Positions 102-17,466 of a stretch of 25,289 nucleotides of DNA are shown here, piece after piece; the stretch's first letter is position 1; every line of letters starts with the position of its first letter. The stretch covers positions 1 through 25,289 of the IMG/VR virus record IMGVR_UViG_3300017747_002921; one strand, 5' to 3'. The translations under genes and the position numbers were made by a program. Origin of the DNA: a virus (taxonomy: Duplodnaviria; Caudoviricetes). The notes below the pieces were generated by a model. The model worked only from the letters and a program-made list of their open reading frames with translations, had not been told where the DNA came from and searched no databases.

Positions 102-782
102 TTGCGTAGGCTCAGTCAACAACGGCAATTTAGCGGCGGAACAGTGCAGCGCATTCGCGATCGGCTAAAAATTCTCGGCAGGCGCCAAAAAGAACTTGCG
201 GCCTTTCTGGGTATTAAGGAGAGTCGCCTGTCCGATTGCCTCAACGGGAAAAACCAGTTCAAGACGATTGAACTCCCGCAAATGGCGGCGTTTTTAAAGT
301 GGTCTCCCGCCGAGTTGCTGGCGGTTATTGCCGATCCGCTTCCCTCCCAAGGGGAAGTAAAGACGATGCCGCTCACGGTCTCCAGGGAGGATCTCGATCT
401 TCCTGTCCTGGGTGCCGAGGAGGTAGGCGGGGGGATTTTCACGTTGAGCGCTGAAGCCGTTGCCGTCACCAGCAGGCCCGTCATGTTGCGGCAGTCGAAG
501 AACTCCTTTGCCTTCCGGGTCGTTTCGGATGCGATGTACCCTGCGCTCGAACGCGGGACGCTGATCTTCATCGACCCGACAATCCCGGCCGCCGTGGGGG
601 AGAATGCCCTTTTTGTCTCCGCGCCGGGCGCAGACGGTAAAATCCGCTACACCGTCCGCCGCATCCTCGACATCACGGAAGCCCACTGGCGGGTAAAACA
701 GTGGAAGCCCGAAAAGACGGTCAACCTGGCCCGATCGGAATGGCCCACCGCCCATAAGGTCATGGGCACCCGCTCCCGCTAG
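102..782 (+). CDS. CI-like phage repressor (XRE HTH + S24 peptidase-like domain); start may be GTG at 144
   Basis: N-terminal QKELAAFLGIKESRLSDCLNGK helix-turn-helix. C-terminal AFRVVSDAMYPALERGTLIFIDP matches the S24 pattern. Flanked by operators. Confidence 0.9.
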   Translation: MRRLSQQRQFSGGTVQRIRDRLKILGRRQKELAAFLGIKESRLSDCLNGKNQFKTIELPQMAAFLKWSPAELLAVIADPLPSQGEVKTMPLTVSREDLDLPVLGAEEVGGGIFTLSAEAVAVTSRPVMLRQSKNSFAFRVVSDAMYPALERGTLIFIDPTIPAAVGENALFVSAPGADGKIRYTVRRILDITEAHWRVKQWKPEKTVNLARSEWPTAHKVMGTRSR

Positions 783-815
783 GCGGCCCAGCTCCCAAAT
801 ATCCACAGGTTTCAG

Positions 816-838
816 GCTGCATGCACTCTGCATGCGGC
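816..838 (+). terminator. Stem-loop downstream of the repressor, possible terminator
   Basis: GCTGCATGCA-CTC-TGCATGCGGC inverted repeat; no clear U-tract. Confidence 0.3.
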
Positions 839-875
839 GGGGCGTCGCTATGTCTATTTCTGCCCACACAAAATA

Positions 876-929
876 ATTAGGGAATTTTGAATAATTAGCC
901 TTGCGCTTTGATTAGGCTTTTCCTAATCT
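876..929 (+). promoter_or_regulatory. Rightward early promoter (PL-like) with two operator sites
   Basis: TTGCGC (901-906), 17 bp, TAATCT (924-929). Palindrome ATTAGG-N5-CCTAAT at 911-927 and degenerate ATTAGGGAATTTTGAAT at 876-892. Confidence 0.7.
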
Positions 930-953
930 ATCTCCACCATACAGGAGAGAGCG

Positions 954-1337
954 ATGCAGAGTGAAGGCGATAGAGAGATTGAACTGCCTCAGCCGAAGAC
1001 GGCTTCGGGGAGTCCCTCGGCTAAACCTTCCGATGCACAACACACGCGCGGGCCTTGGAGTTGTGGCCCCTCGGGGTGGCAAATGGCCGACAACTACAGT
1101 CAACCGTTCAACGTCTATCAGAGTGGCGTTCCAAATCTGATCGCTGGATGCTTTGGCGATGTGCGGGGCGGCCCCGAGGTCGCAGAAGCCAATGCCCGCC
1201 TGATCGCCGCCGCGCCTGATCTGTTGGCAGCGCTGAAGGAGGCCAAGAAGGCCCTTCAACCGATAATGACCAGGGCTGACCGTGAAGTGTTCCAGCGGGT
1301 CGTCGCCGCCCTCTCCAAGGCCGAGTCCCAGTCATGA
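954..1337 (+). CDS. Phage hypothetical protein (HTxGPW...ANARLIAAAPDLL family)
   Basis: AGGAG RBS; motif common in small phage early proteins. The N-terminal ~27 aa are encoded by repeat F1. Confidence 0.85.
   Translation: MQSEGDREIELPQPKTASGSPSAKPSDAQHTRGPWSCGPSGWQMADNYSQPFNVYQSGVPNLIAGCFGDVRGGPEVAEANARLIAAAPDLLAALKEAKKALQPIMTRADREVFQRVVAALSKAESQS
969..1035 (+). repeat. Dispersed hairpin-box element, forward copy F1
   Basis: GAACTGCCTC, hairpin AGCCG-AAGA-CGGCT (991-1004), TCGGGGAGTCC (1005-1015), 9 nt, ACCTTCCGATG (1025-1035). Confidence 0.85.
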
Positions 1338-1594
1338 GTGCAGGGGAAGAGAATGGGTGCCTACGCGCCGATGGCGCTCCGGGGAGTCCTGCTAAGGGAC
1401 CTTCCGACGCCGACCGCGAGATAGAAACGCTGATCCTCGTCTGCAAAGCGCTTTGGCCGCTGACCCACATCGAGCGCCGCCGCGTCCTGAAATATCTGTG
1501 GGCTCGGCTGGTTGAGGCGCGCGAACCGGAGCAGGTCGCAGAAGCCTCAGTCTCCCCGGCACGCGAAGCGGGCCGCACCAATCCTCTTAAATAG
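1334..1594 (+). CDS. Hypothetical protein bounded by inverted copies of the element
   Basis: ATGA overlap with the previous gene; both termini are encoded by repeats F2 and R1. Confidence 0.7.
   Translation: MSAGEENGCLRADGAPGSPAKGPSDADREIETLILVCKALWPLTHIERRRVLKYLWARLVEAREPEQVAEASVSPAREAGRTNPLK
1347..1409 (+). repeat. Element forward copy F2
   Basis: GGGTGCCTAC, hairpin GCGCC-GAT-GGCGC (1365-1377), TCCGGGGAGTCC, 9 nt, ACCTTCCGACG (1399-1409). Confidence 0.85.
1528..1588 (-). repeat. Element inverted copy R1 (degenerate)
   Basis: Minus strand AAGAGGATTGGTGC..CGC-TTC-GCG..CCGGGGAGACT..ACCTGC aligns with F2. Confidence 0.65.
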
Positions 1595-1612
1595 TTGAAA
1601 GGAGAAAGAGAG

Positions 1613-1981
1613 ATGGACACCAGCATTTATCATCTCTGGGACACCAGCCAGCCCAAGGCCGCGCCCGTCACCGTCACCCAAGCTGATGCTTGGGTCGTCG
1701 TCTCGTGGTCCCGCGACCGGGACTCGATCAAGCCGCCGCACACGGGCCGCTACGAGTACGAACACCGCGCCGACCTCAACGAGGCTTACGACCTGTACGC
1801 GGACTATGAGAGCGGCGGCTGCCCCGGCTGGTCTGCTGTCGGCATCTTCCCCTGCAAGAATGGTCTGCCGTTTGGTCCGCCGCTTCCCCTGTCGCAAATC
1901 TCCGCTGCTACGCAAGAGGCTCGGCAGGACAAGCGCGCCGATGACGAGCATGTCCGCCTGTTCGGGAGGCCCAGCCTGTGA
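1613..1981 (+). CDS. Hypothetical protein
   Basis: AAAGGAG/GAGAG upstream of ATG 1613; GTGA overlap with the next gene. Confidence 0.75.
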   Translation: MDTSIYHLWDTSQPKAAPVTVTQADAWVVVSWSRDRDSIKPPHTGRYEYEHRADLNEAYDLYADYESGGCPGWSAVGIFPCKNGLPFGPPLPLSQISAATQEARQDKRADDEHVRLFGRPSL

Positions 1982-2355
1982 ACATCAAAGAGCATATCGA
2001 AGCGGGGCACTATCCGAAGGACGAGAAGGGCCGGGCGCTGGTGCCAATGAAGTCCGGCCGTCAGTTGGTGGTCACGGCTACCGACAAGCCGGGGCCGTGC
2101 CCGATCATTGGCTGGGTCGAGGGCATCAACCACGCATTCGGCTGGTACGGCGACAGTGAAGACCTCCTCCCTCCCCCGCCGCGCAAGGTGAAGGTGATGG
2201 CGTATACGGTCCTCACGCGAGGCAACACCGGGAAGTATGAGACGAGCGGTCTCTTCTTCAATCGCAGCGAAGCAGGCGGCCATAACTGTGGCGCCAGCGG
2301 GCTCGGGATCGTCACCCTCACCGGCGAATACGAGGAGCCGTGGTCATCGCCATGA
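1978..2355 (+). CDS. Hypothetical protein
   Basis: GTG start coupled to the upstream stop, GGAGG RBS, plausible globular composition. Confidence 0.75.
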   Translation: MNIKEHIEAGHYPKDEKGRALVPMKSGRQLVVTATDKPGPCPIIGWVEGINHAFGWYGDSEDLLPPPPRKVKVMAYTVLTRGNTGKYETSGLFFNRSEAGGHNCGASGLGIVTLTGEYEEPWSSP

Positions 2356-2362
2356 GACTCGC

Positions 2363-2393
2363 TCGCGTTGTCCCGCAGCAAAACCGACCGTCA
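2363..2393 (+). repeat. Element partial forward copy F3 (hairpin lost)
   Basis: TCGCGTTGTCC, 9 nt (CGCAGCAAA), ACCGACCGTCA; same spacing as F1, F2 and F5. Confidence 0.55.
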
Positions 2394-2416
2394 ACATAAT
2401 CGAGAGGAGATAGAGC

Positions 2417-2608
2417 ATGACCCGCCACGAGTTGCAGCGCCTTCGCGACATTGCGAACGCCATTCTCGATCGCCCCGAGATGGCCGCCGCCGCATTGGAG
2501 CGCGTCATCGCCGCCGCCGAGTCTGAACACGCCGACGAAGATGCTCACCACGACTTGCTCGCGAGCAAGGATCGCCCCGTCAACCTAGACCAACAGGCAG
2601 CAGCATGA
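2417..2608 (+). CDS. Small hypothetical protein
   Basis: GAGGAG RBS; ATGA overlap with the nuclease gene. Confidence 0.75.
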   Translation: MTRHELQRLRDIANAILDRPEMAAAALERVIAAAESEHADEDAHHDLLASKDRPVNLDQQAAA

Positions 2609-3348
2609 ACCCGTTTGAACGCCACGGAATAACCCACCTCAGCGCGAGCAGCTTGGGGCTCTACAGGGACCAGCCAGCGGCGTGGGTCTGCCGCTACCTC
2701 TTGCGCGTCAAGGACGAGGCCGGGCCCGGCGCATGGCGCGGCACCGCGACCGAGGCCGGCATGGACATGTACCTGTTCGGCCAGCCCGAGAACGCTACCA
2801 AGGCCATGCACCTCGCCTTCGAGGAACGCGCCGCCGGGGTTGCCGACGACAAGACGGTCAAGGAGCGGCAGGCCCTGCCGATGTTCCTGACGCAGGCGCG
2901 GCTCGCGTTGGAGGGCAAGGGAACGCCCCTCACCCGCCAGAGCAAGATCAAGATCGAGATACCGGGGCTGGTCGTGCCAATCATCGGCTTCTCGGACTGG
3001 CAGTGGGCCGATGTGGGCCGGGATCTCAAGACAACCTGGGCGCTGCCGAGCAACCCCAAGCCCGAGCACATCGACCAGATGGCGATCTACATGGAGGCCA
3101 CCGGCAAGCCCTTCGAGCTGGTCTACGTCACCCCGAAGAAGCACGCCATCTATCCGATCAGCCAGCAGCAGGCAGCCGAAGGCATGGCCCGCGTCCGTCG
3201 TGGCGCGCTCGCCATCCAGCACATGCTCGGCAAGGTGGACAGCGGCGAAGACGCGCTGCGGCTCTACACGCCGGATTACTCATCGTTCTACTGGTCGGCA
3301 GAGATGGTGCTGGCCGCCAACAAGGTTCTTGAAGGAGCGCCAGCATGA
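2605..3348 (+). CDS. PD-(D/E)XK superfamily exonuclease (RecB/Cas4-like phage recombination nuclease)
   Basis: HLSASSL, RGTATE, GFSD...DLKTT and QMAIY motifs in the canonical order. Confidence 0.85.
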   Translation: MNPFERHGITHLSASSLGLYRDQPAAWVCRYLLRVKDEAGPGAWRGTATEAGMDMYLFGQPENATKAMHLAFEERAAGVADDKTVKERQALPMFLTQARLALEGKGTPLTRQSKIKIEIPGLVVPIIGFSDWQWADVGRDLKTTWALPSNPKPEHIDQMAIYMEATGKPFELVYVTPKKHAIYPISQQQAAEGMARVRRGALAIQHMLGKVDSGEDALRLYTPDYSSFYWSAEMVLAANKVLEGAPA

Positions 3349-3800
3349 CCGTCATTGTCGCCAAGTACGTCAACCCGGCCAAGCCGGACAAGAAGTTCGG
3401 CAGCATCGTGGACGCCAGCGGGGCGAAGTTCATGCTCCCGGTCGGGATGCAGGATGCCTTCGCCGCCGGGCAGACCTACGACGTACCCACATCGCAGAAG
3501 AAATGGGGCGATAGCGTCGTGACGGTGATCGAGGGACGGCCCGGCGCGGCCGGATCGACCAACCCCGCCACCCCGCCCGCAGCCCCTGCCCCCGCGCCAC
3601 AGGCCGCCCCACGCCCCGCCTACAACGGAAACGGGAATGGCAACGGCAGCGTATCCAAGGACGTGCAGATCGCGACCATCGCCCTGATGAAGTCCTTCAT
3701 CGAGAGCGGCAGCTTTGGCCTCACCGATCTGCCGGCGCTGGAGGCGGCCTGCATTCCGACCGCCCGCAGCATCGTGAAGCGCACGGCGGACGGCACATGA
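3345..3800 (+). CDS. Hypothetical protein, possibly ssDNA-binding or annealing
   Basis: Beta-rich N-domain, Pro/Ala linker, short helical C-domain; directly after the exonuclease. Function inferred from context only. Confidence 0.6.
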   Translation: MTVIVAKYVNPAKPDKKFGSIVDASGAKFMLPVGMQDAFAAGQTYDVPTSQKKWGDSVVTVIEGRPGAAGSTNPATPPAAPAPAPQAAPRPAYNGNGNGNGSVSKDVQIATIALMKSFIESGSFGLTDLPALEAACIPTARSIVKRTADGT

Positions 3801-4120
3801 TTACCGAGCCCCAGGTGCAGGAGTCGATGGACTACCTGTTCGGATCGGCCGTCGCGGCGGCGCAGGCTCGCGCCGACCGGGAAGTGCTGGAACAGGGACT
3901 GAAGCGCATCAAGGCCATGGAAATGCGCGACGCCAACGCAAAAACCATAGGCGAGCGGGAAACCACCGCCTACGCATCCGAGGCTTACAGGGTGGCCCTT
4001 GAGGGGCTGCGCGAGGCCATCACGAAAGACGAGACGTTCCGCGCCATGCGGTCGGCACACTCGGCCCGGATCGAAAGCTGGCGCACCCAGCAGGCAACCA
4101 TGAGAAGCGTGCGCCTGTGA
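3797..4120 (+). CDS. Helical phage protein of recombination modules (UvsY-like mediator, tentative)
   Basis: All-helical, ends in IESWRTQQATMR, a motif seen in phage recombination blocks. Confidence 0.6.
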   Translation: MITEPQVQESMDYLFGSAVAAAQARADREVLEQGLKRIKAMEMRDANAKTIGERETTAYASEAYRVALEGLREAITKDETFRAMRSAHSARIESWRTQQATMRSVRL

Positions 4121-4446
4121 GACGCGAGTTCCCCGACAAGGTGAAGATAGACGCTTTCCAGCGCGCCGATGGTCACTGCGAGAAATGCACCGCCAAGCTG
4201 TTCGTGGGGAAGATCCACTACGACCACCGCATCCCCGATGCCATGGGAGGCGAGCCGACGCTATCCAACTGTGATGTGCTTTGCTCCGCGTGCCATGGGG
4301 TCAAGACGCATCGCATCGACGTTCCGGCCATCGCCAAGGTCAAGCGCATCCGTGCCAAGCATCTTGGGGCGGTTAAGCCCTCCGGCTTTCGTAAGCCACC
4401 TGAAGGATACGATCCTTGGAAAAGACGAATGAGGGAAGCGACATGA
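4117..4446 (+). CDS. HNH endonuclease
   Basis: CEKC...YDHRIP...GG...NCDVLCSACHGVKT. Confidence 0.9.
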   Translation: MRREFPDKVKIDAFQRADGHCEKCTAKLFVGKIHYDHRIPDAMGGEPTLSNCDVLCSACHGVKTHRIDVPAIAKVKRIRAKHLGAVKPSGFRKPPEGYDPWKRRMREAT

Positions 4447-4625
4447 GCAAAGCAAAGCGAGAGAAGCCGGTTGAGTTGGACAACGCGAGCGACAAGATGG
4501 CCGTCATGCTGTTTCGTGCGGCGCTCAAAGTTGTCCGCGAAGGCGGCGGCCCGATCAAGATCACACTGCATCCGACAAAGCGCCCGCACCCCGCGAGTGC
4601 CCACGTTAAGGGGCGCAGGCCATGA
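4443..4625 (+). CDS. Small basic hypothetical protein
   Basis: ATGA overlap at 4443; its stop codon directly abuts repeat R2. Confidence 0.6.
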   Translation: MSKAKREKPVELDNASDKMAVMLFRAALKVVREGGGPIKITLHPTKRPHPASAHVKGRRP

Positions 4626-4681
4626 GCAGGCAGGTCTGACATGCAGGACTCCCGGAGGCCGAAGGCCGACGCACTACTCTC
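4626..4681 (-). repeat. Element inverted copy R2
   Basis: Plus strand GCAGGCAGGT, 10 nt, GGACTCCCGGA, hairpin GGCC-GAA-GGCC (4657-4667). Confidence 0.85.
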
Positions 4682-4688
4682 CTTTGAA

Positions 4689-4736
4689 ATAGAGAATGAA
4701 CTGGCTCGGCTTCGCCTCGCGGAGTCCTTCAGAAAC
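4689..4736 (+). repeat. Element forward copy F4 (terminal box replaced by an RBS)
   Basis: AGAGAATGAACTGGCTC, hairpin GGC-TTC-GCC (4708-4716), TCGCGGAGTCC (4717-4727). Confidence 0.85.
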
Positions 4737-4747
4737 AGGAGTGCGAC

Positions 4748-5023
4748 ATGAGCGATGAGGTTAGCTTGATGATCGTTGTCGGCATGGCAGCGATGTTGAT
4801 GGGGTTGATTCTCGGGCGATGGTCCGAGGCCTCGATCTGGCGCGGCAAGTGTGGCGACGAGGTCGGCTACCGCACCGCCATGTGTAGCGGCGGCAAGTTC
4901 TACTACGTCGTCACGGAGCGCGAATACGTCGACAAGGTGATGGGGCCGCTGACGGACAAGGAAATCGAGGCGCGCACGCTGGCCGCGCAGTACAGCGACC
5001 AGCATCCGTATGGTGCGCCATGA
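4748..5023 (+). CDS. Hypothetical protein with an N-terminal transmembrane segment
   Basis: AGGAG RBS; hydrophobic LMIVVGMAAMLMGLILG. Confidence 0.75.
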   Translation: MSDEVSLMIVVGMAAMLMGLILGRWSEASIWRGKCGDEVGYRTAMCSGGKFYYVVTEREYVDKVMGPLTDKEIEARTLAAQYSDQHPYGAP

Positions 5024-5112
5024 TTTGGTACATCGCTTCGGCCATCGGCGGCGCTGCCGTCTGCTACTTCCTCGTCTGGCTCTACGTCGTCTGCAATTGG
5101 CCCCGGCCATGA
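5020..5112 (+). CDS. 30-aa membrane peptide (absent from the ORF track)
   Basis: MIWYIASAIGGAAVCYFLVWLYVVCNWPRP; ATGA overlaps at both ends fill the gap exactly. Confidence 0.7.
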   Translation: MIWYIASAIGGAAVCYFLVWLYVVCNWPRP

Positions 5113-5354
5113 TCAAGGCAATATGCCACGGCAAGAACGGCCGCAAGATCGCGCTGCTCGGCATTACGGACATGAACATCCAGAAGATGCGCGAGGGCAA
5201 GCCGATCCAGATCCACGGCGAGGAAATGGGCCTCGGCAATCTCGAAATCTGGATCATCACCGGCAAGGACGAGGCAGCGCTCGCCAAAACGCTCTCGCCG
5301 ATGATCGGACCCGAGACGACCGTGCGAAATCAGACAAAGGAGCGCCGCCAATGA
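5109..5354 (+). CDS. Hypothetical protein
   Basis: MIKAICHGK... starts at an ATGA overlap; LGITDMNIQKMREGKPI. Confidence 0.75.
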   Translation: MIKAICHGKNGRKIALLGITDMNIQKMREGKPIQIHGEEMGLGNLEIWIITGKDEAALAKTLSPMIGPETTVRNQTKERRQ

Positions 5355-5767
5355 GCAGGAAGGTGACAGCCATGGGACCACGCGAGCAAGGCGGTGCAAT
5401 CGTGACCGCGCAAGACCTCCCTCCGGTGCTGGAAAGCTGCCCTTTCTGCGGGAACGTCGCGATTCTGCATCGGCATTGCGAGGGTCAAGGAGCAGATCAA
5501 AAGCTGATCGCGGTCTACGTGGCTTGCAACACGTTCAAGCCGAACGCCTGTGGTGCCGCCGTGATGACGACGCCCCTTGGTTGCGCCTTCACACACGAAG
5601 CCGACGCCATCGCCGCCTGGAACCGCCGCTCTCTCCGGGCGGAACGGGATGCGGTGCTGGAATTGGCGGCAGTTAAGGCCGAGACGTGCCCCGTGATGGA
5701 CGTTCACTGGCGTCGCGACATCGCCGCAGCCATCCGCGCACTGAAGGCGGAAGGTGGTGGAGCATGA
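5351..5767 (+). CDS. Lar-family (restriction alleviation-like) zinc-finger protein
   Basis: LESCPFCG...VACNT...CGA...DAIAAWNRR. Start may be 5351 (ATGA) or GTG 5402. Confidence 0.75.
   Translation: MSRKVTAMGPREQGGAIVTAQDLPPVLESCPFCGNVAILHRHCEGQGADQKLIAVYVACNTFKPNACGAAVMTTPLGCAFTHEADAIAAWNRRSLRAERDAVLELAAVKAETCPVMDVHWRRDIAAAIRALKAEGGGA
5355..5385 (-). repeat. Element partial inverted copy R3
   Basis: GCAGGAAGGT, 10 nt, GGACCACGCGA, directly after a TGA stop. Confidence 0.65.
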
Positions 5768-6027
5768 CCAGCGGCGGACTCACCATGGCCGAGGGCTGGA
5801 ACCTCCAGCTACAGGGGCGCGTGCGAGAACTGGAGGCCGATTTAGAGCAGGCCGAACAGCTTTTGCGCGATGTCACCAAGGACATGCAGAACAGCACTGA
5901 ACTCCGCCTCGCGGTGCTTTTCCTTCAAGGCATGGACGACAAACGCGCCAAGCGCGCCGCTATCGCGGAAGATGTTGAGGAATTTCTGAAGGCGGAAGGT
6001 GTCGAGAAGGAGACGAACAATGACTAA
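5764..6027 (+). CDS. Coiled-coil hypothetical protein
   Basis: GGAG RBS, ATGA overlap; RVRELEADLEQAEQLL heptads. Confidence 0.7.
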   Translation: MTSGGLTMAEGWNLQLQGRVRELEADLEQAEQLLRDVTKDMQNSTELRLAVLFLQGMDDKRAKRAAIAEDVEEFLKAEGVEKETNND

Positions 6028-6340
6028 CATGACGAAAGCCGCGCAGGACGTTCTTGTCGAACGCGAGCGCCAGAAGGCCGCCGAAGGCTGGACGCCAGAG
6101 CATGACGACGAGCACGCCAATGGCTCGATAGCCCTTGCGGCTGCAGCCTACGCCTCTGGATATGAATGGATCTGGCCGTGGGATGGGACTTGGTGGAAAC
6201 CAAAGAGCCCGCGTCGCGACCTCGTCCGAGCCGGCGCGCTGATCCTCGCCGAGATCGAACGCTTGGATCGCATCGAACCCAAGCAGGAAGGTGTCGAGGC
6301 GGGACCACCCGGAGCGACGAAGTCGCGTAGGCACCCCTAA
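6020..6340 (+). CDS. Phage hypothetical protein (ERxRQ..EGWTPEHDD family)
   Basis: Recognisable motifs ending RRDLVRAGALILAEIERLDR; the C-terminal tail is encoded by R4. Confidence 0.85.
   Translation: MTNMTKAAQDVLVERERQKAAEGWTPEHDDEHANGSIALAAAAYASGYEWIWPWDGTWWKPKSPRRDLVRAGALILAEIERLDRIEPKQEGVEAGPPGATKSRRHP
6283..6336 (-). repeat. Element inverted copy R4
   Basis: GCAGGAAGGT, 9 nt, GGACCACCCGGA, hairpin GCGAC-GAA-GTCGC (6314-6326), GTAGGCACCC. Confidence 0.85.
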
Positions 6341-6363
6341 CCCCTTCGTATTAATAAGGAGAT

Positions 6364-6429
6364 GAGAGATGGATGAACTGGCTCAGCGCAAGAGCGCTTC
6401 GCGGAGTCCTGCAGAGAAACCTACCGATG
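6364..6429 (+). repeat. Element forward copy F5
   Basis: ATGAACTGGCTC, hairpin AGCGC-AAGA-GCGCT (6385-6398), TCGCGGAGTCC, 9 nt, ACCTACCGATG (6419-6429). Confidence 0.9.
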
Positions 6430-6818
6430 CCAAACCAAAGACCGAGGCCGAGTGGCGACGACAGCGTAACGAAGCGCAGAACGCCCTGTACGAGTTCGAG
6501 AAGAAGGCCCGAGCCGACAAATGCGCAGCGTTGCTGGGCAATTGCTATCGCTTCAACAATTCATACGGCAGCGGAGAGAAGAGCTGGCTTCTGTACGCCC
6601 GTGTGGTCGGTGCTGACGATTGGGGCCGCCCGATCATCTTCAAGTTCGAGACGACCTCGCGCGGCGAGATCAGAATCGAGCCCTTCGAGGCGTGCATGTC
6701 ACTCGACAGCTACAAGCCCATCGAGATCCGGGAATATCTCGACGCATGGGCTGAACTTCAACATCGCGTAGCTGCCCTGATTGCCGCGCCGCCACCTAGC
6801 AAGGCGGAAGGTCCGTAA
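6369..6818 (+). CDS. Hypothetical protein bounded by F5 and R5
   Basis: TAAGGAG upstream; 149-aa ORF whose termini lie inside the repeats. Confidence 0.8.
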   Translation: MDELAQRKSASRSPAEKPTDAKPKTEAEWRRQRNEAQNALYEFEKKARADKCAALLGNCYRFNNSYGSGEKSWLLYARVVGADDWGRPIIFKFETTSRGEIRIEPFEACMSLDSYKPIEIREYLDAWAELQHRVAALIAAPPPSKAEGP

Positions 6819-6857
6819 TGCAGGACTCCGCGAAGCAGCGAAGCTGCGTAGCCACCC
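6803..6857 (-). repeat. Element inverted copy R5
   Basis: GGCGGAAGGT, 10 nt, GGACTCCGCGA, hairpin GCAGC-GAA-GCTGC (6835-6847), GTAGCCACCC. Confidence 0.9.
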
Positions 6858-6914
6858 CCCTTCTTCAATTCTCACCCACGGAAGCGTAGTCCTACCATTG
6901 AAGTCTAGGAGACG

Positions 6915-7127
6915 ATGATGCCCCGACCTAAGAAGAAGGCCCCCAAGAAGGAAAATTGGCGCGGCTTTATAGCCAAGCACGACGATCCCGAGGGCAACGG
7001 CTTTCCCCGGCCCGGCATTCGCCGCTTTCGCGTCTACCCTCTCCAAAAACTGCGCACCAGCGAAGGTCTAAAAGACGTGGCGATCATCGAACTGCTCCCG
7101 CGCGCCAAGCCCCGGAAGCGCCCATGA
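6915..7127 (+). CDS. Small basic hypothetical protein
   Basis: AGGAG RBS; ATGA overlap with the xis-like gene. Confidence 0.7.
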   Translation: MMPRPKKKAPKKENWRGFIAKHDDPEGNGFPRPGIRRFRVYPLQKLRTSEGLKDVAIIELLPRAKPRKRP

Positions 7128-7351
7128 GTGAACAGAACGACGACCGCGAGCTGCGCATCGCCACCCGCGCTGTGCGCCTGTACGCTGAGAGCCACCCAAG
7201 GCCAACGCAGGTTACGCAGACCCAGGCTGCGGAGATCCTTGGCGTTGCGCCCCGAACCGTGCGACGCTACATCCGCGCCGGCCGGTTGAAGCTCAATCGC
7301 TGCGGCTATCTGCCGATTGAGGCGGTCGACGCGATGCGCGCTCCCCAATAA
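7124..7351 (+). CDS. Excisionase-like HTH DNA-binding protein
   Basis: VTQTQAAEILGVAPRTVRRYIRAGRL; adjacent to attP and the integrase. Confidence 0.8.
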   Translation: MSEQNDDRELRIATRAVRLYAESHPRPTQVTQTQAAEILGVAPRTVRRYIRAGRLKLNRCGYLPIEAVDAMRAPQ

Positions 7352-7578
7352 TTACGCACGACACGATGACGATCGTTGATTTAATTGGGTTTGCGAGTCC
7401 AGCAGCGGGCACCACGGGCTTGTCCGCTATTGTCACTCAACCGCCGGACAGAGGCGGCCAGTATAGACTAAATCGACACTTCCGCACAGGCTCGTTGTCC
7501 TATCCCGGCTCCCCGAACTGGACAATTCCAGCCGCTATTCCCCACTATCTCCCCACGGCACTACGCACGGGGGAGCGG
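7352..7578 (+). other. attP region with a tRNA 3'-end-like core (7394-7414)
   Basis: CGAGTCCAGCAGCGGGCACCA resembles the T-loop 3' side, acceptor strand and CCA of a tRNA (Leu-like). TACGCACG direct repeats at 7353 and 7562 are candidate arm sites. Confidence 0.75.
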
Positions 7579-8562
7579 ATGGCGTCGATCAGGAAGCACC
7601 AGGGCGGATACCGCGCGCAGGTCTATGTCGGGGGGCGGCGCGCTTCCAAGGTGTTCCGCACCCAGCGCGAGGCGTCGGCTTGGGCGCTCGGCAAGGAAGG
7701 CGAACTGGAGCGGTCGCCATCCGAACTGCACACCGTCCGCCAGTTGGTCGAGCGGTATATAGAAGAGGTGATCCCCGGCAAGCGGGGCGGCACCCACGAG
7801 GAGTGGCAAGCCAAGGCACTGCTGCGGGACTTCCCCGATCTGGCCGCCAAGAAGTTGTCCGACCTCGACACGCCCGATCTGGCCCGGTGGCGCGATACCC
7901 GGCTCAAGGTCGTGTCCGACGCCACGGTCCTGCGCAATCTGAGCTGGCTACGGCACGCGCTCAAGGTCGCCCGCGAGGAATGGAAGTGGATGGACCGCAA
8001 CCCGCTCCAAGGCCTGCGCATTCCCAAGAACCCGACGCCAAGGACCCGGCGCATGCAGATGGGCGAGGTGCGCGCCCTGTGCCGCATCCTCGACTACCGG
8101 CCGGGCAAGGCCCCCCAGACCAAGGGCCAGCAGGTCGCGCTTGCCCTCATGGTGGCCCTGCGCTCCGGCCTGCGTGCTGGCGAGATCCTGAGCCTGGGGC
8201 GGGGCAACCTCGACATGAGGAACCGCGTCGCCAAGGTCCAGCACAAGACCCAGCACCTGACGGGCCGCCCGCGCGAGGTGCCGCTACGCCATCCCGTCAT
8301 CCGCCTGTTGCGCCCCGTGGCCCATCTGGAGAGATGCTTCGATATTTCGTCGGCCTCGCTCGACGTGCTGTTCCGCAAGGCCCGCGATCGGCTTATGATC
8401 GAGGACCTGCACTTCCACGACTCGCGCGCCGAGGCCCTGACGCGGCTGGCCCGCAAGGTGGACGTGATGACCCTATCCAAGATCAGCGGGCACAAGGACG
8501 TGCGAATCCTCGTGAACGCCTATTACAGAGAAACGGCGGCTCAAATCGCCGCGAGAATATGA
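7579..8562 (+). CDS. int: Tyrosine integrase, Rci/HP1-like subfamily
   Basis: MASIRK..YRAQV N-terminus; catalytic SGLRAGEI, FHDSRAEA, SGHKD and YY; GGAG RBS before ATG 7579. Confidence 0.93.
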   Translation: MASIRKHQGGYRAQVYVGGRRASKVFRTQREASAWALGKEGELERSPSELHTVRQLVERYIEEVIPGKRGGTHEEWQAKALLRDFPDLAAKKLSDLDTPDLARWRDTRLKVVSDATVLRNLSWLRHALKVAREEWKWMDRNPLQGLRIPKNPTPRTRRMQMGEVRALCRILDYRPGKAPQTKGQQVALALMVALRSGLRAGEILSLGRGNLDMRNRVAKVQHKTQHLTGRPREVPLRHPVIRLLRPVAHLERCFDISSASLDVLFRKARDRLMIEDLHFHDSRAEALTRLARKVDVMTLSKISGHKDVRILVNAYYRETAAQIAARI

Positions 8563-8612
8563 GCAGGAAGGTGTCGAGGACAGACCACCGAGCGACGAAG
8601 TCGCGAGCACCA
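8563..8612 (-). repeat. Element inverted copy R6 abutting the integrase stop
   Basis: GCAGGAAGGTGTCGAGG..GACCACC..GAGCGAC-GAA-GTCGCG; closely similar to R4. Confidence 0.85.
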
Positions 8613-8648
8613 CTAAGGACTCCCAATGACAGATAACCTTGTCAGCCA

Positions 8649-8716
8649 GCAGGAAGGGTTAGCCGTGGCTCCCCGCTTCGCGGCTCGCGGAGTCCCACGG
8701 CAGCCACCTACCGACG
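8649..8716 (+). repeat. Self-complementary composite element (inverted arm + forward copy F6)
   Basis: GCAGGAAGGGTTAGCCGTGG..CCGC-TTC-GCGG..TCGCGGAGTCC-CACGGCAGCC-ACCTACCGACG. Confidence 0.85.
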
Positions 8717-8732
8717 TATAATGGAGAGACGA

Positions 8733-9053
8733 ATGAAGAAACCGAAAGCCAAGAAGGCGACGGCCAAGAAGAAGGCGGCCAAAGCCAAGAAGCCCCTCCC
8801 AGCCCCCAAGCCCTATTGGGTGAAACCCGGCCCGAATTTCAAGGACGGCTATCGCTGGGCTGGCATTACTGCCGAGCAGATCAGGTACTTCCTGAAGGAC
8901 TTGCCGGGCAGCTTTTCGGGCGTCCAGGAGTTCATCAAAGGCCGAAACACTGGCGGCATTGTCGGCGTCCTCCGGGCTGTGCCGGCGCTTCTAGCCGACG
9001 CGGAGAAGGCGGTGGGCCGCAAGGCGCGTAGGCGGCCACCTGCCGACGTATGA
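8733..9053 (+). CDS. Lys-rich hypothetical protein flanked by direct repeats
   Basis: GGAG at 8723 favours ATG 8733; KKPKAKKATAKKKAAKAKK N-terminus. Confidence 0.75.
   Translation: MKKPKAKKATAKKKAAKAKKPLPAPKPYWVKPGPNFKDGYRWAGITAEQIRYFLKDLPGSFSGVQEFIKGRNTGGIVGVLRAVPALLADAEKAVGRKARRRPPADV
9031..9051 (+). repeat. Direct repeat of 8699-8719 (terminal box of the element)
   Basis: GGCGGCCACCTGCCGACGTAT vs GGCAGCCACCTACCGACGTAT, 19/21 identical. Confidence 0.85.
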
Positions 9054-9063
9054 GGAGGCGAAG

Positions 9064-9330
9064 ATGGGCGACACCATCAGACGGCATGACGAGACGGACG
9101 AACCGGACGTTCCGTTTACCAGCCTGCGCGAGGCAATGCAGAGCCTTCGCACCTTGGCGCGCGCCGCTGCCAACAACCACGAACGCAACCTCGCCAAGTA
9201 CATGCTGCGGCACATCAATGGCCTCACGCGCGAAAACAAGAAGCTGCGCCATGATCTTGCGGAGGCTCGCGACCTCGTCCGAGTCTCACGGATGAACGCG
9301 CGGGCGCTGATAGAACAGCGTCGGCAATGA
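9064..9330 (+). CDS. Hypothetical helical protein, last gene of the + arm
   Basis: GAGGAGG RBS; ends in ATGAGCAGGAATGT, a stub of the element. Confidence 0.75.
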   Translation: MGDTIRRHDETDEPDVPFTSLREAMQSLRTLARAAANNHERNLAKYMLRHINGLTRENKKLRHDLAEARDLVRVSRMNARALIEQRRQ

Positions 9331-9340
9331 GCAGGAATGT

Positions 9341-9733
9341 CTAACCGCCCGTATCTGGCGGCACGAAGCAGATGGTCCCGCGATCCGGGGTCCAGCAATG
9401 GTGGGCGTCCTGCCCGTTCGGATTGCGCTCGCGTAGGATCTTGGCGTCGGCCACGGGTATCCATCCGTTGATCTGCCGCACCCACACCCACCAGACGCCC
9501 GCGCGTATCTCGGCCTTGGTCGGCTCGCAATCTCCGGTCTCGACGCCATCCGGCCCCACAATCCGCGCATTGCAGCAGGAAGTGTTCGGGTTGTCGTTCG
9601 GCTTCCAGTTCCGATAGAAGTCCTTGTGGAAGTCGTGATGGTGCTGTTGCGACCTCCCCGGCTTCACGGCTCCAACGACCGCACCGAAGGCTATCACTGC
9701 CGCGAATAGAACGCCTAGATCGCGGGTGTTCAT
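9341..9733 (-). CDS. Exported Cys-containing phage protein
   Basis: N-terminal hydrophobic segment; SCC..DC..HCW..ICFVPP pattern. Confidence 0.8.
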   Translation of the reverse strand: MNTRDLGVLFAAVIAFGAVVGAVKPGRSQQHHHDFHKDFYRNWKPNDNPNTSCCNARIVGPDGVETGDCEPTKAEIRAGVWWVWVRQINGWIPVADAKILRERNPNGQDAHHCWTPDRGTICFVPPDTGG

Positions 9734-9776
9734 GGCTTCCCTGCAAATGCAAAGCGGCGGTTAAGATTTGCGGGGA

Positions 9777-9974
9777 TCATCGCGGCGGCACCGGGGCGTC
9801 AGAGTCGGACGGGTGCGGCTGGCTGCACTCGGCCCACTGGATGGCCTTCGCCAAATCCGCGATCAGGGATAGAGCCAGACCCTCCCCCACCTCGCAGGAA
9901 CGCTCCACCCCATCGACGTTGACCTTGTGAAGGATGCGACCGTCCTCGACGACGAAGCGGGGGTAGAGGTTCAT
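9777..9974 (-). CDS. Small hypothetical protein
   Basis: MNLYPRFVVEDG... starts at an ATGA overlap with the GNAT stop; GGAGG RBS. Confidence 0.7.
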   Translation of the reverse strand: MNLYPRFVVEDGRILHKVNVDGVERSCEVGEGLALSLIADLAKAIQWAECSQPHPSDSDAPVPPR

Positions 9975-10402
9975 ATCGCCCTCCGCCAGTAGACCATGGT
10001 GCGCCAGTACGCCGGGTTGATGACGAGGCCGGTCGTCGCCGTCGCCTCGAATGGCCGGTATCCGCAGGCGATCAGCGAACGCATGGACGCTGCGGAGTAA
10101 GCCTCGGTGTAGGTGATGGCGCTCCTGATGCCCGCGTCGCGCATGGCGTTCTCGCGGTACTCGATCATGGCGCGCTGCAGGCCCTGGCCCCGGCTTTCGG
10201 GGAGGACGCCCGCCCTGTAGTGGAACCCTTCCTCTAGGTGCCTGCACCAGCCGCAGAAGGCCACGGCGACGGGGCCTTGCCATACGAGCGACCAGTGCGC
10301 CGCATCCAGGATCAGCGGCTTGTCATCGGGGAAGCACTCGGCATCGAGCCAACGCAGCCAGCGTCGATCCTCGGGGCCTACGACGGGGCGGAACTCGGTC
10401 AT
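9971..10402 (-). CDS. GNAT-family acetyltransferase
   Basis: RAGVLPESRGQGLQRAMI acetyl-CoA motif A; SMRSLIACGY motif B. Confidence 0.9.
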   Translation of the reverse strand: MTEFRPVVGPEDRRWLRWLDAECFPDDKPLILDAAHWSLVWQGPVAVAFCGWCRHLEEGFHYRAGVLPESRGQGLQRAMIEYRENAMRDAGIRSAITYTEAYSAASMRSLIACGYRPFEATATTGLVINPAYWRTMVYWRRAI

Positions 10403-10674
10403 TCCGGGGCCTTCTTGCTGGGGAAGTCGTCCAGCTCCAAAACCATCCGCTTGGGCACGGCCATCATGCAGCCCGCCTCCCATGAGCCATCGTTGCGCCC
10501 GAGATTCGGCGCGATCAGGTGGTAGTTCTTGGTTTCCTTCACCAGATAGCCGTAGCTCTCGACCGTGTAGTCAACGTGTTCGTACTGATCGACGTTCTTC
10601 CATTCGTCCTCAGAATAGGCGTCGAGCCAGACGCAGCGGATGAAACGGAACGGGGGTTTGTCGTCGTCGCTCAT
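10399..10674 (-). CDS. Phage hypothetical protein (VxWxDA...SxG.L...P family)
   Basis: CVWLDAYSEDEW...VESYGYLVKE...VPKRMV; ATGA-coupled on both sides. Confidence 0.8.
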   Translation of the reverse strand: MSDDDKPPFRFIRCVWLDAYSEDEWKNVDQYEHVDYTVESYGYLVKETKNYHLIAPNLGRNDGSWEAGCMMAVPKRMVLELDDFPSKKAPE

Positions 10675-11927
10675 GCCGCCACCTTTGCGTCGAACATGCC
10701 GGGATTGACGGTGTGCCGCTCTACCTCGCCGTGTTCGCAGTGGTAGACGATGGCCTTCATGGAGCGGTTGCCGCGATAGCCCGCGCCTGCCGCGTAGGCA
10801 TCCAGCGGCGGCAGAACTTCCAGGGTCTCGACCTTGCAGCCGGGAAACGATTTGAGGCTTTCGTGGTGGACGTGGCCGGTAAACCAGACGCGGTGCGCCG
10901 TGCGGCCCCACGCTTCCGGCCGGTCGTGCGCCATGATGCCGGGCAGCTTCTCGCCCTTGATCTTGTCGCCGTGATGCGTGCCGATTAAGACCTTGTGCCA
11001 CTCAAAGTAATGGCAGCCCATCGGGGACTTGTCGATCGTCACGCGGGGTTCGTTCTCGTACAGGCACGCCAGCAGGATACGCATAAAGGCCGCTGTCGCC
11101 GGGTCGTGGTTGCCGCCCTCGAATATCACCGTGACGAGCTTATGCCGCTCCAGCGCCGCCGCGATGATGTGGCGAATGATCCGAACGCCAGTCTCGACCA
11201 TCTTCGGAAAGCGGCCGTCTGCATCCAGTAGGTTCTTGTGCGCGGGCGTGACGGCCGCATAGGAGTCGTAATGAAGGAAATCGCCCAGGAACGGGATCAG
11301 CGCCTGTTCGCACGGCGGGCAGGTATCTATCAGCCGGACGGACGCATCGCGAAAGACCTGTTCTGATATCTTCAGGTCATAGTCGGCATCGCCCGTCTCT
11401 TCGGCCCATGCTTGCATTCCGTGGTGCTGGTCTCCTACGGGATAGACGGCCAGCAGATCGGCATGCGACTTGCCCTTGGGAGCCTTGACCGGCGCGGCCC
11501 TCGGCACGGCCATGGCGATCTTCTCTGCGTAGAGAAGCCACAACCGCTCGCGCTCAGCGTCCTCGGGTTTCTCCGAAATCCACTGCTGCACGACCTTGCC
11601 TTGTTGGTCGCGGAGCGTGGACAGCTTTACGATCTTCTTCGGATCCTGAATCTGGACGGCATCCTCGGGCTCGATGCCCGCCAGCCGTGTCTTGTCCCAT
11701 CGGGCTATCTCTTCGCCGTCGTTGTTGTAGAGGGTGCTTTGACCCTTCATCACCATCTTGGGCGGGATAGCCGAAACAAACCCCCGCCTCCGGGCCTCTC
11801 TCAGCCGCCCCTCGAAGGTCGAGCGGTTCAGGTCCAGAGCCCGGCATACAGTGGCGATGCTGCCGTGCGTTGCCATGGCATCGACGGCCCCTTGGCACAA
11901 CTCGTCTGATAGCGGCGGGGTGGGCAT
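10671..11927 (-). CDS. Calcineurin-like metallophosphoesterase with an N-terminal HTH
   Basis: GDQHHG, LGDFLH, GNHD, HHGD and GHVHH motifs; HGSIATVCRALDLNRSTFEGRL HTH. Confidence 0.88.
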   Translation of the reverse strand: MPTPPLSDELCQGAVDAMATHGSIATVCRALDLNRSTFEGRLREARRRGFVSAIPPKMVMKGQSTLYNNDGEEIARWDKTRLAGIEPEDAVQIQDPKKIVKLSTLRDQQGKVVQQWISEKPEDAERERLWLLYAEKIAMAVPRAAPVKAPKGKSHADLLAVYPVGDQHHGMQAWAEETGDADYDLKISEQVFRDASVRLIDTCPPCEQALIPFLGDFLHYDSYAAVTPAHKNLLDADGRFPKMVETGVRIIRHIIAAALERHKLVTVIFEGGNHDPATAAFMRILLACLYENEPRVTIDKSPMGCHYFEWHKVLIGTHHGDKIKGEKLPGIMAHDRPEAWGRTAHRVWFTGHVHHESLKSFPGCKVETLEVLPPLDAYAAGAGYRGNRSMKAIVYHCEHGEVERHTVNPGMFDAKVAA

Positions 11928-12235
11928 TACTTCACGACCTCGCTAGGTAGGCAGTGCTTGTCGTATTCGATGTTGAAGGCCACGATCTGGTCGGCGTAGC
12001 TTTCCATCACGTCCCAATTGTCCGCGAAGACCTTGATCTGTGCGTCGGTGGCGCTGATGTGGCGGAAGCGTTCGCAACTGGTATCCGCGCTCACAATTGG
12101 GAGTGGCGGGGAGCAGGCGGATAGGAGTAGAATTGCGGCCACAGGAATCAGGAACGACGGCAACGCTAAGCGGATGTTGTCGGTTGGACCGCTAGGCTCT
12201 GCAGAGCCTTTAGAGGCCGGCCCGTCGTTCATCAT
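11927..12235 (-). CDS. Outer-membrane spanin-like lipoprotein (start uncertain)
   Basis: Lipobox LLLSAC followed by SPPLP; follows an i-spanin-like gene. Confidence 0.7.
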   Translation of the reverse strand: MMNDGPASKGSAEPSGPTDNIRLALPSFLIPVAAILLLSACSPPLPIVSADTSCERFRHISATDAQIKVFADNWDVMESYADQIVAFNIEYDKHCLPSEVVK

Positions 12236-12468
12236 TTCAGCCTCTCCAGCTTCTCAGCCGGAGCCATCTGCCTAACCTTCTGCTGGGTTACGGCCCTGCC
12301 CTTGGTAGCCTCGACCTTGCCAGCCAGTGCGGCGGCATAGGTGCGGGCGGCTTGTTCCAGCGCCCCGTTCTTTTCGTGAAGTCGGCCGTTCTGCCAAAAG
12401 AGGAAGGCCGCAGCGGCGATACCGGCGGCGGCGATCAGCCATGGGGCGAAGCGGAGAAGGCCGATCAT
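12232..12468 (-). CDS. Inner-membrane spanin-like protein
   Basis: N-terminal TM helix plus Ala-rich helix, directly after the endolysin. Confidence 0.7.
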   Translation of the reverse strand: MIGLLRFAPWLIAAAGIAAAAFLFWQNGRLHEKNGALEQAARTYAAALAGKVEATKGRAVTQQKVRQMAPAEKLERLK

Positions 12469-12926
12469 ACCGGCCGCCTCGCCTCGAAGGCGACGCCAAG
12501 GAACTGGTCACGCTCGCCAGCACGGCGCGTCCGCACCTCGAAGTCGGCCATCCAGTTATTGAAGGCTTGGCCAGCGCCTTCGTAATCGCCCGCGTTCAGT
12601 GCCCGCAGGATGCTCGAAGGCTTGCCGCCGTTGCCGTAGGCCAGCGCGTTCTTGCCGACGTTGTAGGCGAAGGACACGAGAGCATCGAACTGGTGCTGCT
12701 TGAGCGGAACGGTCACGCAGTCGTTGACGGACTGCTCGAACACTCCAAGGTGGCGCACAAAGTCTGCGTCGGCCTTCTCCTGCGAGATCGGCGGCCCGTT
12801 CGGGATGACGCCATGCGTATTTCCCCAGCCATCGGTCCAGACGCCCTTGGTGTCGAGATAGGGCTTGAGGCGGCAGCCCTCGCGGCCGTGCAGAAGCTCG
12901 ATGCCCTGCTTGCTGGTTTTCATCAC
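12465..12926 (-). CDS. Endolysin, GH24 lysozyme
   Basis: REGCRLKPYLDTKGVWTDGWG (E-x8-D-x5-T), QFDALVSFAYNVG, RRAGE. Confidence 0.93.
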   Translation of the reverse strand: MMKTSKQGIELLHGREGCRLKPYLDTKGVWTDGWGNTHGVIPNGPPISQEKADADFVRHLGVFEQSVNDCVTVPLKQHQFDALVSFAYNVGKNALAYGNGGKPSSILRALNAGDYEGAGQAFNNWMADFEVRTRRAGERDQFLGVAFEARRPV

Positions 12927-13213
12927 GGCACCTTGGCTGCAAGCGTCGCGGCTGCGGTCGCCGCCGTGTCGGTCGCCTTATTCGCCATGGTGGCGATCTG
13001 GTCTTGCTGCTTCTGGCTGCTCACGGTGGAGCCGGTGAAGTAGTTGCCAACGTCCTTGAACGACGTAATCAGCGCGCCCAGCATGATAAGCAGGTACTTC
13101 TCCTGCTCCCCCTCGATCTTCACCACGAAAATCATGTAGAGGCAGGCAAAGAAAGATATCGTGACGAGCGTGCAGTAGATCACGGCGCCGAGAGTGCGAA
13201 GCGTCTCGTTCAT
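12923..13213 (-). CDS. Holin-like two-TM protein
   Basis: Two hydrophobic segments, YFTGS..SS motif, upstream of the endolysin. Confidence 0.7.
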   Translation of the reverse strand: MNETLRTLGAVIYCTLVTISFFACLYMIFVVKIEGEQEKYLLIMLGALITSFKDVGNYFTGSTVSSQKQQDQIATMANKATDTAATAAATLAAKVP

Positions 13214-13407
13214 CAGTGGGCAATCTTCGATAGCTGCCAGACGGCAGCGAAAAGGGCGCAGATGAGCGCGCCAGACGAGATAATCACCAGCGCCTCAAGG
13301 CGGCCTATACGGGCCAAAATGCCCGCGTACCGCTCGGCGCAGACCGCCTCGTGAGTCGCCAATTTGGACGCAGTTGCGGTGGGTGTTTTGCGGGTAGCCC
13401 TAGCCAT
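13213..13407 (-). CDS. Small membrane protein of the lysis cassette (HEAVCAERY family)
   Basis: HEAVCAERY plus a C-terminal TM helix; GGAG RBS. Confidence 0.75.
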   Translation of the reverse strand: MARATRKTPTATASKLATHEAVCAERYAGILARIGRLEALVIISSGALICALFAAVWQLSKIAH

Positions 13408-13510
13408 GGGGCGACTCCAGGGTCAGTCTCATCTCAGCCTCCGTGAGCCGTGCTTGGCTCGTTGGGGTCAGGCTCCCGGTGGCATTCGCGGTGCGCCGGG
13501 GGCCGCTTCG

Positions 13511-13639: not shown

Positions 13640-13646
13640 GCTTCAC

Positions 13647-15644: not shown

Positions 15645-15654
15645 TTTTTTCCTC

Positions 15655-16203: not shown

Positions 16204-16213
16204 AGTCTTCTCC

Positions 16214-17452: not shown

Positions 17453-17466
17453 TATACTCTCCGGCC

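Follow-up and report, generated by a model that had tools for sequence, protein, structure and literature searches.

Does a short, hairpin-bearing DNA repeat that recurs through the early operon of a temperate phage mark the places where genes have been exchanged, and by what means would such exchange proceed? The question is raised by the virus fragment IMGVR_UViG_3300017747_002921 (Duplodnaviria; Caudoviricetes), the complete record of which (G000 in our set, 25.3 kb) we analysed at its full length of 25,289 nucleotides and refer to as the window. Its left part holds a repressor gene (102–782) and a plus-strand early operon with PD-(D/E)XK, HNH and Lar-like genes, in which an excisionase-like protein and a tyrosine integrase are also encoded; the minus-strand arm carries lysis and virion genes. 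The phage is temperate. Within its early operon, the original prediction had recognised a dispersed, oriented repeat at the boundaries of accessory genes and had proposed a gene-cassette system. Sequence comparison indicates that this repeat family is real and apparently undescribed, and yields direct comparative evidence for an in-frame exchange of gene bodies; we are confident, if short of certain, that the repeat marks exchange joints. No published description of the family was found, as judged mostly from titles and abstracts, supplements aside.

The repeat is about 55 bases long. It begins with TG and a 2-base outer stem, followed by a symmetric internal loop (TC or TNC), an inner stem of two to five pairs and the mirrored loop and stem; after the hairpin come a GGAGTCC core, a spacer of 8–10 bases and an ACCTTCC box. 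The element described earlier stands, with its hairpin now better defined by outer pair, internal loop and inner stem. Using a detection profile trained on 41 copies from other contigs, with the window copies excluded from training, we found nine copies in the window (14.6–41.3 bits) above the best score reached in 300 shuffled windows (11.4 bits), that is, the family is real. Five profile hits are forward (979–1035, 1352–1410, 4696–4736, 6373–6428 and 8661–8718) and four are inverted (4623–4679, 5352–5387, 6282–6339 and 6802–6859). Among the copies listed previously, nine are clear; the one at 2360 is weak (8.8 bits), only the box scores at 8563 (5.8 bits), and the copies at 1528 and 8649 are degenerate and were missed by the profile. 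All window copies are confined to the early operon, in agreement with the earlier remark that no clear copy was seen in the structural arm. Beyond position 8901 no profile score reached 3 bits, and matches to three box-plus-flank patterns lay in the early arm, all on the expected strand (AGCAGG type five, AAGGCGG type three, GAYG type six), with none in 9345–25289; as the patterns were taken from the window itself, these counts are partly circular. A fixed-gap pattern matched five times versus 0.29 times by chance.

From 68 candidate copies, 51 were parsed and 17 were not; removal of one duplicate and two odd parses left 48. The outer pair, on which the parser imposed no pairing, was GC:GC in 27, CC:GG in 19 and CG:CG in two of these copies and never mixed. 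Twenty-one distinct inner stems occurred among the 48, but these had been picked by the parser for pairing, so covariation was tested separately on eight copies of equal length. Here, 56 of 56 cells paired and six of the seven pairs had two-sided changes, a result matched by none of 500 shuffles (slid controls paired in 23–50%). The hairpin covaries, and the repeat structure is under selection. Read on the complementary strand, the internal loop is GA/GA in 30 and GNA/GNA in 16 of the 48 copies; among three-base loops, GNA was found on one strand in 23 of 28 cases and on the other in none of 28. Tandem G-A pairs and GNA triloops stabilise DNA hairpins. Identical hairpins were used in both orientations relative to transcription in five of nine hairpin-sharing pairs of copies, and identical spacers in three of 19 spacer-sharing pairs, which favours a role at the DNA level. 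According to the descriptions in PMC13449921 and PMC6344338, a 13-base hairpin core of the repeat is found in a cloning-vector backbone as well as in E. coli DNA next to a tRNA-like sequence, and it may be a widely reused single-stranded DNA motif. A primosome site, considered on account of these occurrences, was set aside and is kept as a lead only, since core and box are arranged otherwise in the sequences given there.

Forward copies lie at or inside gene starts and inverted copies at or inside gene ends (29 and 21, respectively, among 50 parsed copies). The placement proposed earlier held in this respect, but many copies lie within reading frames and not between genes, at least 23 of them being read inside long genes. 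The bases that follow the box differ with orientation (forward/inverted: GAYG 13/1, TGC 3/18, GCC 5/6, other 2/1), and the distribution of GAYG versus TGC bears out the claim that orientation with respect to genes is non-random (Fisher p 5e-6, with the near-duplicates L040 and L048 omitted). When flank-side genes of at least 120 bases that read through the box were considered, the box was read in one frame, as P-S/T-x in eight of nine forward cases and as E-G in all 14 inverted cases. The PSDA that results is in register with natural gene starts: a gene of the complete genome G001 reads PSDVLLALA, its counterpart in L039 MSADLLALA. Among motif-bearing homologues of window gene 954–1337, 85 of 104 have at most eight residues before the motif, and an M[STA]D start was found in 26 of 285 called genes. 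On one strand the box is Shine-Dalgarno-like, often with an ATG 5–7 bases later.

Direct evidence for exchange comes from proteins. A profile of eight repeat-coded peptides, compared with 1.84 billion proteins, gave 11 matches: five already known, three new, and three (P0244, P0245 and P0248) discarded as low-complexity repeats. P0250 and the product of window gene 1334–1594 (P0249) agree in 25 of their first 26 residues and in 11 of their last 12. The body of P0250 belongs to phrog_1273, the body of the window protein is unrelated to it, and BLASTP aligns the first 28 residues only. In P0247, a Lar-like body follows the leader known from a G001 gene; P0178 carries the leader of window gene 954–1337 (P0122) on an unrelated body, and P0145 the latter leader on a divergent member of the same family. 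In P0250, P0247 and P0178 the leader match includes the spacer-coded residues and stops at PSDA; because these residues are kept in all three swaps, the crossover falls within about 11 bases, which is short for ordinary homologous recombination. P0250, P0145 and P0001 (a 93% identical integrase) each list a 41,796-base contig and probably stem from one close relative.

Nucleotide comparisons gave a corresponding picture. Among 56 boxed copies, 19 pairs shared a spacer with at most one difference, versus 5.4 expected and a maximum of 15 in 500 shuffles. Five bases past the box, identity within such pairs falls to about 0.3, the background level, with the exception of one pair that is alike far past the box and two that are partly so. 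L039 and L040 have a back-to-back pair in common and diverge outside both boxes, and around one inverted copy the sequences of L016, L041 and G001 are arranged as a three-way mosaic. In L071, the integrase stop abuts the homologue of gene 9341–9733, and block 8560–9340 is absent; in the window, this block comprises two genes downstream of the integrase, with an 11-base direct repeat, made up of flank and box, on either side. As L071 is only about 76% identical, it represents a loose empty site. The first gene of the block (8733–9053) has a lysine/alanine-rich N-terminus. For run X1, a single run represented by contigs only, no joints (circles, inversions or deletions) were listed; a part of 6433–6892 had no cover in this run, which proves nothing. 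Taken as a set of cases, and not as a rate, the breakpoints place gene-content breaks of relatives at the repeat, as the cassette idea had it, but what is exchanged is the gene body that lies between the inner boxes and is joined in frame to repeat-coded ends. Similarly, leaders part right after the GGAAGGT/ACCTTCC box as foreseen, but some breaks at gene ends lie at the core.

Within the window, forward copy F1 (985–1035; 39.4 bits; core at 1009, box at 1025–1031) lies within the first 28 codons of gene 954–1337, and F2 (1358–1409, 41.3 bits) codes the leader of gene 1334–1594. The tail of the latter gene is coded by the inverted copy R1 (1528–1579), which is visible in the sequence and backed by P0250, where the same peptide is found. 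F3 (forward, 2360–2389) is a remnant before gene 2417, with 0.017 hits of its score expected per shuffled window. The inverted R2 (4622–4673, 29.5 bits) begins at the stop of gene 4443–4625 and stands back to back with F4 (forward, 4702–4747, 28.2 bits), a boxless copy that extends into the ribosome-binding site of gene 4748. The R2–F4 pair resembles a pair in another operon, that of L041 (75% over 113 bases), and boxless copies of the F4 type also occur in G001, L036, L041 and L042. R3 (inverted, 5351–5387, 14.6 bits) supplies the opening codons of the Lar-like gene 5351–5767; P0251, of the same family, starts without the R3-coded leader. R4 (inverted, 6281–6333, 26.8 bits) codes the tail of gene 6020–6340 and is back to back with F5 (forward, 6379–6429, 40.8 bits), which codes the leader of gene 6369–6818. 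Core, spacer and box of R4 are identical to those of a copy on another contig (L049:77), and the flanks part directly after the box. In R5 (inverted, 6801–6854, 35.9 bits), spacer and box are identical to copies in the complete genomes G002 and G003, and the flanks differ. R6 (inverted, 8559–8612), with hairpin and core visible by eye, lies at the integrase stop and forms the left end of block 8560–9340. At 8649–8716, the degenerate inverted remnant R7, visible in the sequence, overlaps with the forward copy F6 (8666–8716, 33.3 bits), the two sharing one hairpin. There are three back-to-back pairs in the window.

Four of the predicted stubs correspond to box-only sites. Two weak ones on the minus strand encode KAEG at the end of the Lar-like gene (5744–5755) and of gene 5764–6027 (5989–6003, 3.7 bits); since KAEG is a common natural protein ending, found in 47 of 119 homologues of gene 954–1337, these stubs, given as 5746 and 5991 in the original prediction, are weak when taken alone. 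A third lies on the plus strand before gene 9064 (9038–9048), and a fourth on the minus strand after gene 9064–9330 (9327–9340), 11 bases of which form a direct repeat with 8559–8569. Some of the stubs score within the range of shuffled sequence.

Pattern scans covered viral and metagenome collections and 185,579 genomes. Besides the window, real copies were found on 18 distinct contigs, in early regions only, and 53 copies of at least 14 bits occur over 19 locus sets, of which L044 duplicates L038; many of the 53 were in the training set of the profile. Most carrier record ids come from few series, and the habitats are possibly not independent. In the complete genomes G001–G003, copies are again confined to early operons. 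None of 60 control loci found via shared genes (834 kb; PD-(D/E)XK gene 12, integrase 36, P0250 12) scored above 9.0 bits, and no copy was present in four named phages or in the cultured phages and plasmids searched. Matches among the latter proved to be gene 6020–6340 and not the repeat, a match in phiLM21 was a chance 21-mer, and exact matches in L019–L023, L025, L027, L029, L030 and L033 were set aside as chance. The boxless pattern hit 31 further viral loci, each with a single match that had no full hairpin and box. Among the 185,579 genomes, the exact pattern occurred on one phage-like contig, in a bin labelled Planctomycetia that had no chromosomal expansion of the repeat (three pattern matches versus five for a control pattern). 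This 10.3-kb contig (L058, L038), with repressor, Cro, GapR-like and primase-helicase genes, is likely misbinned.

Some features of the carriers were seen in passing. G003 (L056, L106 and L107) is a complete 42.6-kb genome with terminal repeats, a Cro-like gene, at least three HNH_3 endonuclease genes and a TylF-like methyltransferase gene. Downstream of the GapR-like gene, about 450 conserved bases (L053 10540–11180; L016 1550–2200; L038 3900–4290; L041 2820–3260; L048 455–860) contain several variable hairpins and show poor coding signs. This stretch, which in some versions includes a repeat copy, may represent a structured leader without coding function or an antitermination RNA.

What could exchange the gene bodies? 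Our preferred reading, to which we give slightly less than an even chance, is a site-directed exchange in which a protein recognising a folded single strand directs exchange near the ACCTTCC box. Two points favour recognition of a folded strand: the fold, although strand-asymmetric, is used in both orientations, and the three swaps fall within about 11 bases. A putative protein, probably reading the hairpin in single-stranded DNA, would exchange strands at or next to the box. The forward site would give a translated leader, to which the new gene would be joined at about its second codon (PSDA where MSDA or MTDA is natural); the inverted site would join inside the Shine-Dalgarno-like gene end and would give a short tail and coupling to the next start. 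With one common frame, any leader could accept any body. The putative enzyme would need to act in trans, and we propose that the folded molecule would be DNA and not RNA. A bolder form of this reading, possible though less likely than not, is that the carriers share one cassette system that is integron-like but free of an integrase: the G-A-mismatched hairpin in single-stranded DNA would be recognised by a protein, and gene bodies would be linked to repeat-coded leaders and tails in a fixed codon phase.

Several observations weigh against directed exchange. G003, a complete genome with three clear copies, has no PF00589 tyrosine recombinase; Y1 transposase (PF01797) was found in none of five phage records, the host genome lying outside this search; and Pfam scans of 231 proteins (134 + 97, mostly from early genes) gave no other recombinase or transposase family. 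These scans covered 134 of 158 and 93 of 108 called genes plus four added ones, most of them without annotation, and an enzyme could sit among the unannotated early proteins or come from the host. What these phages do encode are Erf or Rad52-type annealing proteins and NinB. Several gene-end breaks lie at the core and not at the box (L041/L050, L016/G001/L041 and the tail of P0250), as expected if any short shared stretch serves. The swaps in P0250, P0178 and P0247 are known at the protein level only. Folding energies calculated with DNA parameters had no strand preference (24 of 48 copies; 40 of 48 with RNA parameters), and the hairpins do not flip freely, as purine-rich loops occur on the top strand of the repeat in 14 of 28 forward and in none of 20 inverted copies. 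Finally, orientation and genes rest on a crude, self-made gene caller, a few calls of which are uncertain, and codon usage together with natural KAEG endings could account for the frame at gene ends.

According to the closest rival, the hairpin is an RNA or single-stranded DNA signal for expression or replication of the early operon, and the swaps are a by-product of homologous recombination between short stretches. We consider this quite possible and place directed exchange narrowly ahead of it. The breaks at both conserved motifs, the Erf, Rad52-type and NinB genes and the failure to find a dedicated enzyme all speak for homologous recombination, while another primary job of the repeat is suggested by the Shine-Dalgarno-like box with its frequent ATG and by the GANTC found in the core of 38 of 48 copies, which PMC2229807 names as the CcrM site. 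GANTC is scarce in L053, L102, L045, L104, L056, L106, L016, L041, L038 and the window, at about 0.4–0.75 of the expectation from base composition; it is retained in the repeat core despite this genome-wide scarcity. A signal function, however, fits poorly with both orientations lying in one transcript despite the strand-asymmetric fold. Moreover, our scan found no sigma-70-like promoter in 780–9500 (other promoter types lay outside the scan) and five terminator-like sites, none of them on a copy. The confinement of the crossover to about 11 bases in three protein comparisons likewise tells against plain homologous recombination.

This rival resembles what has been proposed for promoter-stem-loops (PeSLs) and for boundary sequences. 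PeSLs are intergenic cassettes of T4-type phages whose tandem recombination yields mini-circles (PMC2839356, PMC4122927). As depicted in these sources, they too are dispersed short hairpin repeats limited to variable regions, where gene bodies are gained, lost or exchanged, with an enzyme that is unidentified there as well; our copies are likewise limited to variable regions and lie at gene-content breaks. In contrast, our copies occur in both orientations, share one frame of translation and belong to small temperate phages, and the scan just described found neither the promoter nor the terminator typical of PeSLs on a copy. Boundary sequences of lambdoid phages and mycobacteriophages are also short conserved stretches at module borders and were proposed as crossover points (PMC3029335). 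As presented there, they are plain short homologies, whereas here a covarying hairpin, an invariant core and a box recur at many unrelated junctions.

Less probable, and in our view unlikely, is a selfish non-autonomous element of the REP/REPIN, PATE or miniature inverted-repeat transposable element (MITE) kind, moved by a host transposase; the back-to-back pair would be its mobile unit, inserting at start codons and ribosome-binding sites and bringing replacement leaders. Such pairs are indeed common (L016, L036, L038, L039, L040 and L041, besides the three in the window), the pair common to L039 and L040 shows divergence directly outside both boxes, and in one G001 gene a single copy seems to have been inserted into the N-terminus. 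In addition, Y1 transposases read strand-specific hairpins with mismatches, as outlined in PMC8266576, and REP/REPIN sequences share with our repeat the imperfect palindromes, conserved mismatches and occurrence as singlets and inverted doublets (PMC3116915, PMC8266576). But relative to these descriptions, the GTAG foot is present in one of 48 copies only, no Y1 transposase lies nearby, there is no chromosomal expansion and many copies are coding. The doublets fold weakly, no better than shuffles in the three window pairs (z −0.4 to −2.0). The stretch between paired copies is variable and can contain part of a gene, and five alignments with distant relatives gave no clean empty site or target duplication. 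With respect to PATEs of IS200/IS605, the phages have no TnpA, and guide and cleavage pairings tried by eye gave no consistent fit.

Two alphaproteobacterial repeats deserve comparison at this point. RPEs are palindromes fused in frame into proteins, as in our case, but measure 105–146 bases in the account of PMC2229807 versus about 55 here, where the repeat is limited to phages and to gene termini with body exchange. CIRs have a conserved GANTC, too. As characterised in the same source, they are about 110 bases long, two-armed and never intragenic, with stops in all frames and GANTC at the loop; our repeat, compared with that description only, has one hairpin in about 55 bases, is often intragenic and has GANTC at the foot of the stem.

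Very unlikely is a phage integron, in which the repeats would be secondary attachment sites of the phage tyrosine integrase, derived from tRNA 3' ends. The window integrase (7579–8562, plus strand) is a PF00589 protein of the prophage type. A likely attP (7343–7568, plus strand) lies between the excisionase-like gene 7124–7351 and the integrase, with arm-like repeats at 7343 and 7551 and a core at 7393–7414 that we take to be shaped like a tRNA 3' end. Scored with a matrix of the repeat's right arm (10-base spacer), the att core at 7395 ranked fourth of about 50,500 positions (18.4 bits), and R6 starts at the integrase stop. But the likeness was spotted after the fact, an unrelated site reached 17.5 bits, and the likeness may reflect nothing other than the tRNA-like shape. 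While the att-like region is conserved in six loci with related integrases (in the series L065–L072), eight loci with 71–76% identical integrases and the same att region have no repeat copy, and carriers have different integrases or none. The integron integrase model TIGR02249 had no match at E 0.01 for the window and G001 integrases, and the G002 integrase scored 49 against a cut-off of 265. The attP region is not part of the repeat system, and, as judged from the loci compared, the neighbouring integrase appears unlinked to the repeat on present evidence. In L045, a tRNA-like fragment downstream of the G002 integrase (6100–6215), in which ARAGORN calls no full tRNA, is probably the G002 att core.

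The analogy to integron attC sites that the original prediction had drawn did not survive either. The likeness is considerable: attC sites have a purine bias in unpaired features with a GAA loop on the recombining strand (PMC5027507), and our repeat shares the one-strand purine-rich unpaired features (GA/GA or GNA/GNA loops in 46 of 48 copies), the placement at gene ends and the crossover at a short box. However, compared with the attC sites treated in that source, our box is outside the hairpin, copies occur in both orientations and the integrase encoded nearby is of the ordinary prophage kind. The attC core pair RYYYAAC ... GTTRRRY, as defined there, is absent from all 68 copies with 40-base flanks.

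At shufflon sfx sites, a constant N-terminus is joined in frame to alternative C-terminal parts at a short site. Here, in contrast, the genes behind inverted copies are real, forward and with homologues, not silent segments; the partners seem to come from other phages, and no invertase family was found among the scanned proteins. A match to a known RNA family, which would have spoken against a new element, was checked for as well: Rfam gave no match at gathering score in the window (best E 2.9 in 800–9500). The repeat is not attC, REP, PeSL or CIR. Chance, or starts and ends common to many proteins, is hardly credible as a source of the matches: natural KAEG endings, M[STA]D starts and stub scores within shuffle range make it possible for box-only stubs, but it is refuted for full copies by nine copies far above shuffles under an independent model, by covarying base pairs and by a spacer whose variation between 8 and 10 bases breaks any single peptide.

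Among the genes next to the repeat, 954–1337 (plus strand) belongs to phrog_1273/PF27050 and has a 28-residue leader coded by the repeat. Gene 1334–1594 (plus strand, 86 residues), with both leader and tail repeat-coded, exemplifies a cassette; its body has no assigned family. Gene 6369–6818 (plus strand), bracketed by F5 and R5, encodes a 149-residue orphan for which a search of 19 candidates returned only the protein itself, and an alignment-based search with gene 1613–1981 yielded no loci. Related repeat carriers encode Cro, GapR-like, NinB and Erf or Rad52-type proteins; from GapR we presume a host probably among the alphaproteobacteria. In the window, the repressor gene and the early operon downstream of it share one direction of transcription. 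Between them, at 870–935, lie two imperfect palindromes (TAATTAG ... and ATTAGG ... CCTAAT), which are likely repressor operators overlying a promoter. A 418-residue gene annotated as DNA repair exonuclease (10671–11927, phrog_704) lies on the late strand amid lysis genes and is also found in L065, L066 and L071.

How temperate phages precisely join unrelated genes at their borders is a long-standing question, and most phage mosaic borders show no conserved sequence, according to PMC3029335. Here, the structure of the border is defined, its reading frame is fixed and a double swap is documented, which makes directed exchange versus chance recombination with selection a testable matter. The repeat also explains odd common N- and C-terminal peptides on unrelated phage proteins, and such peptides can mislead annotation. 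If a dedicated hairpin-reading protein is at work, this would amount to structure-specific recombination of a new type, by which proteins are fused in frame; and if its sites form one shared cassette system, that system would be the phage equivalent of common-phase exon shuffling.

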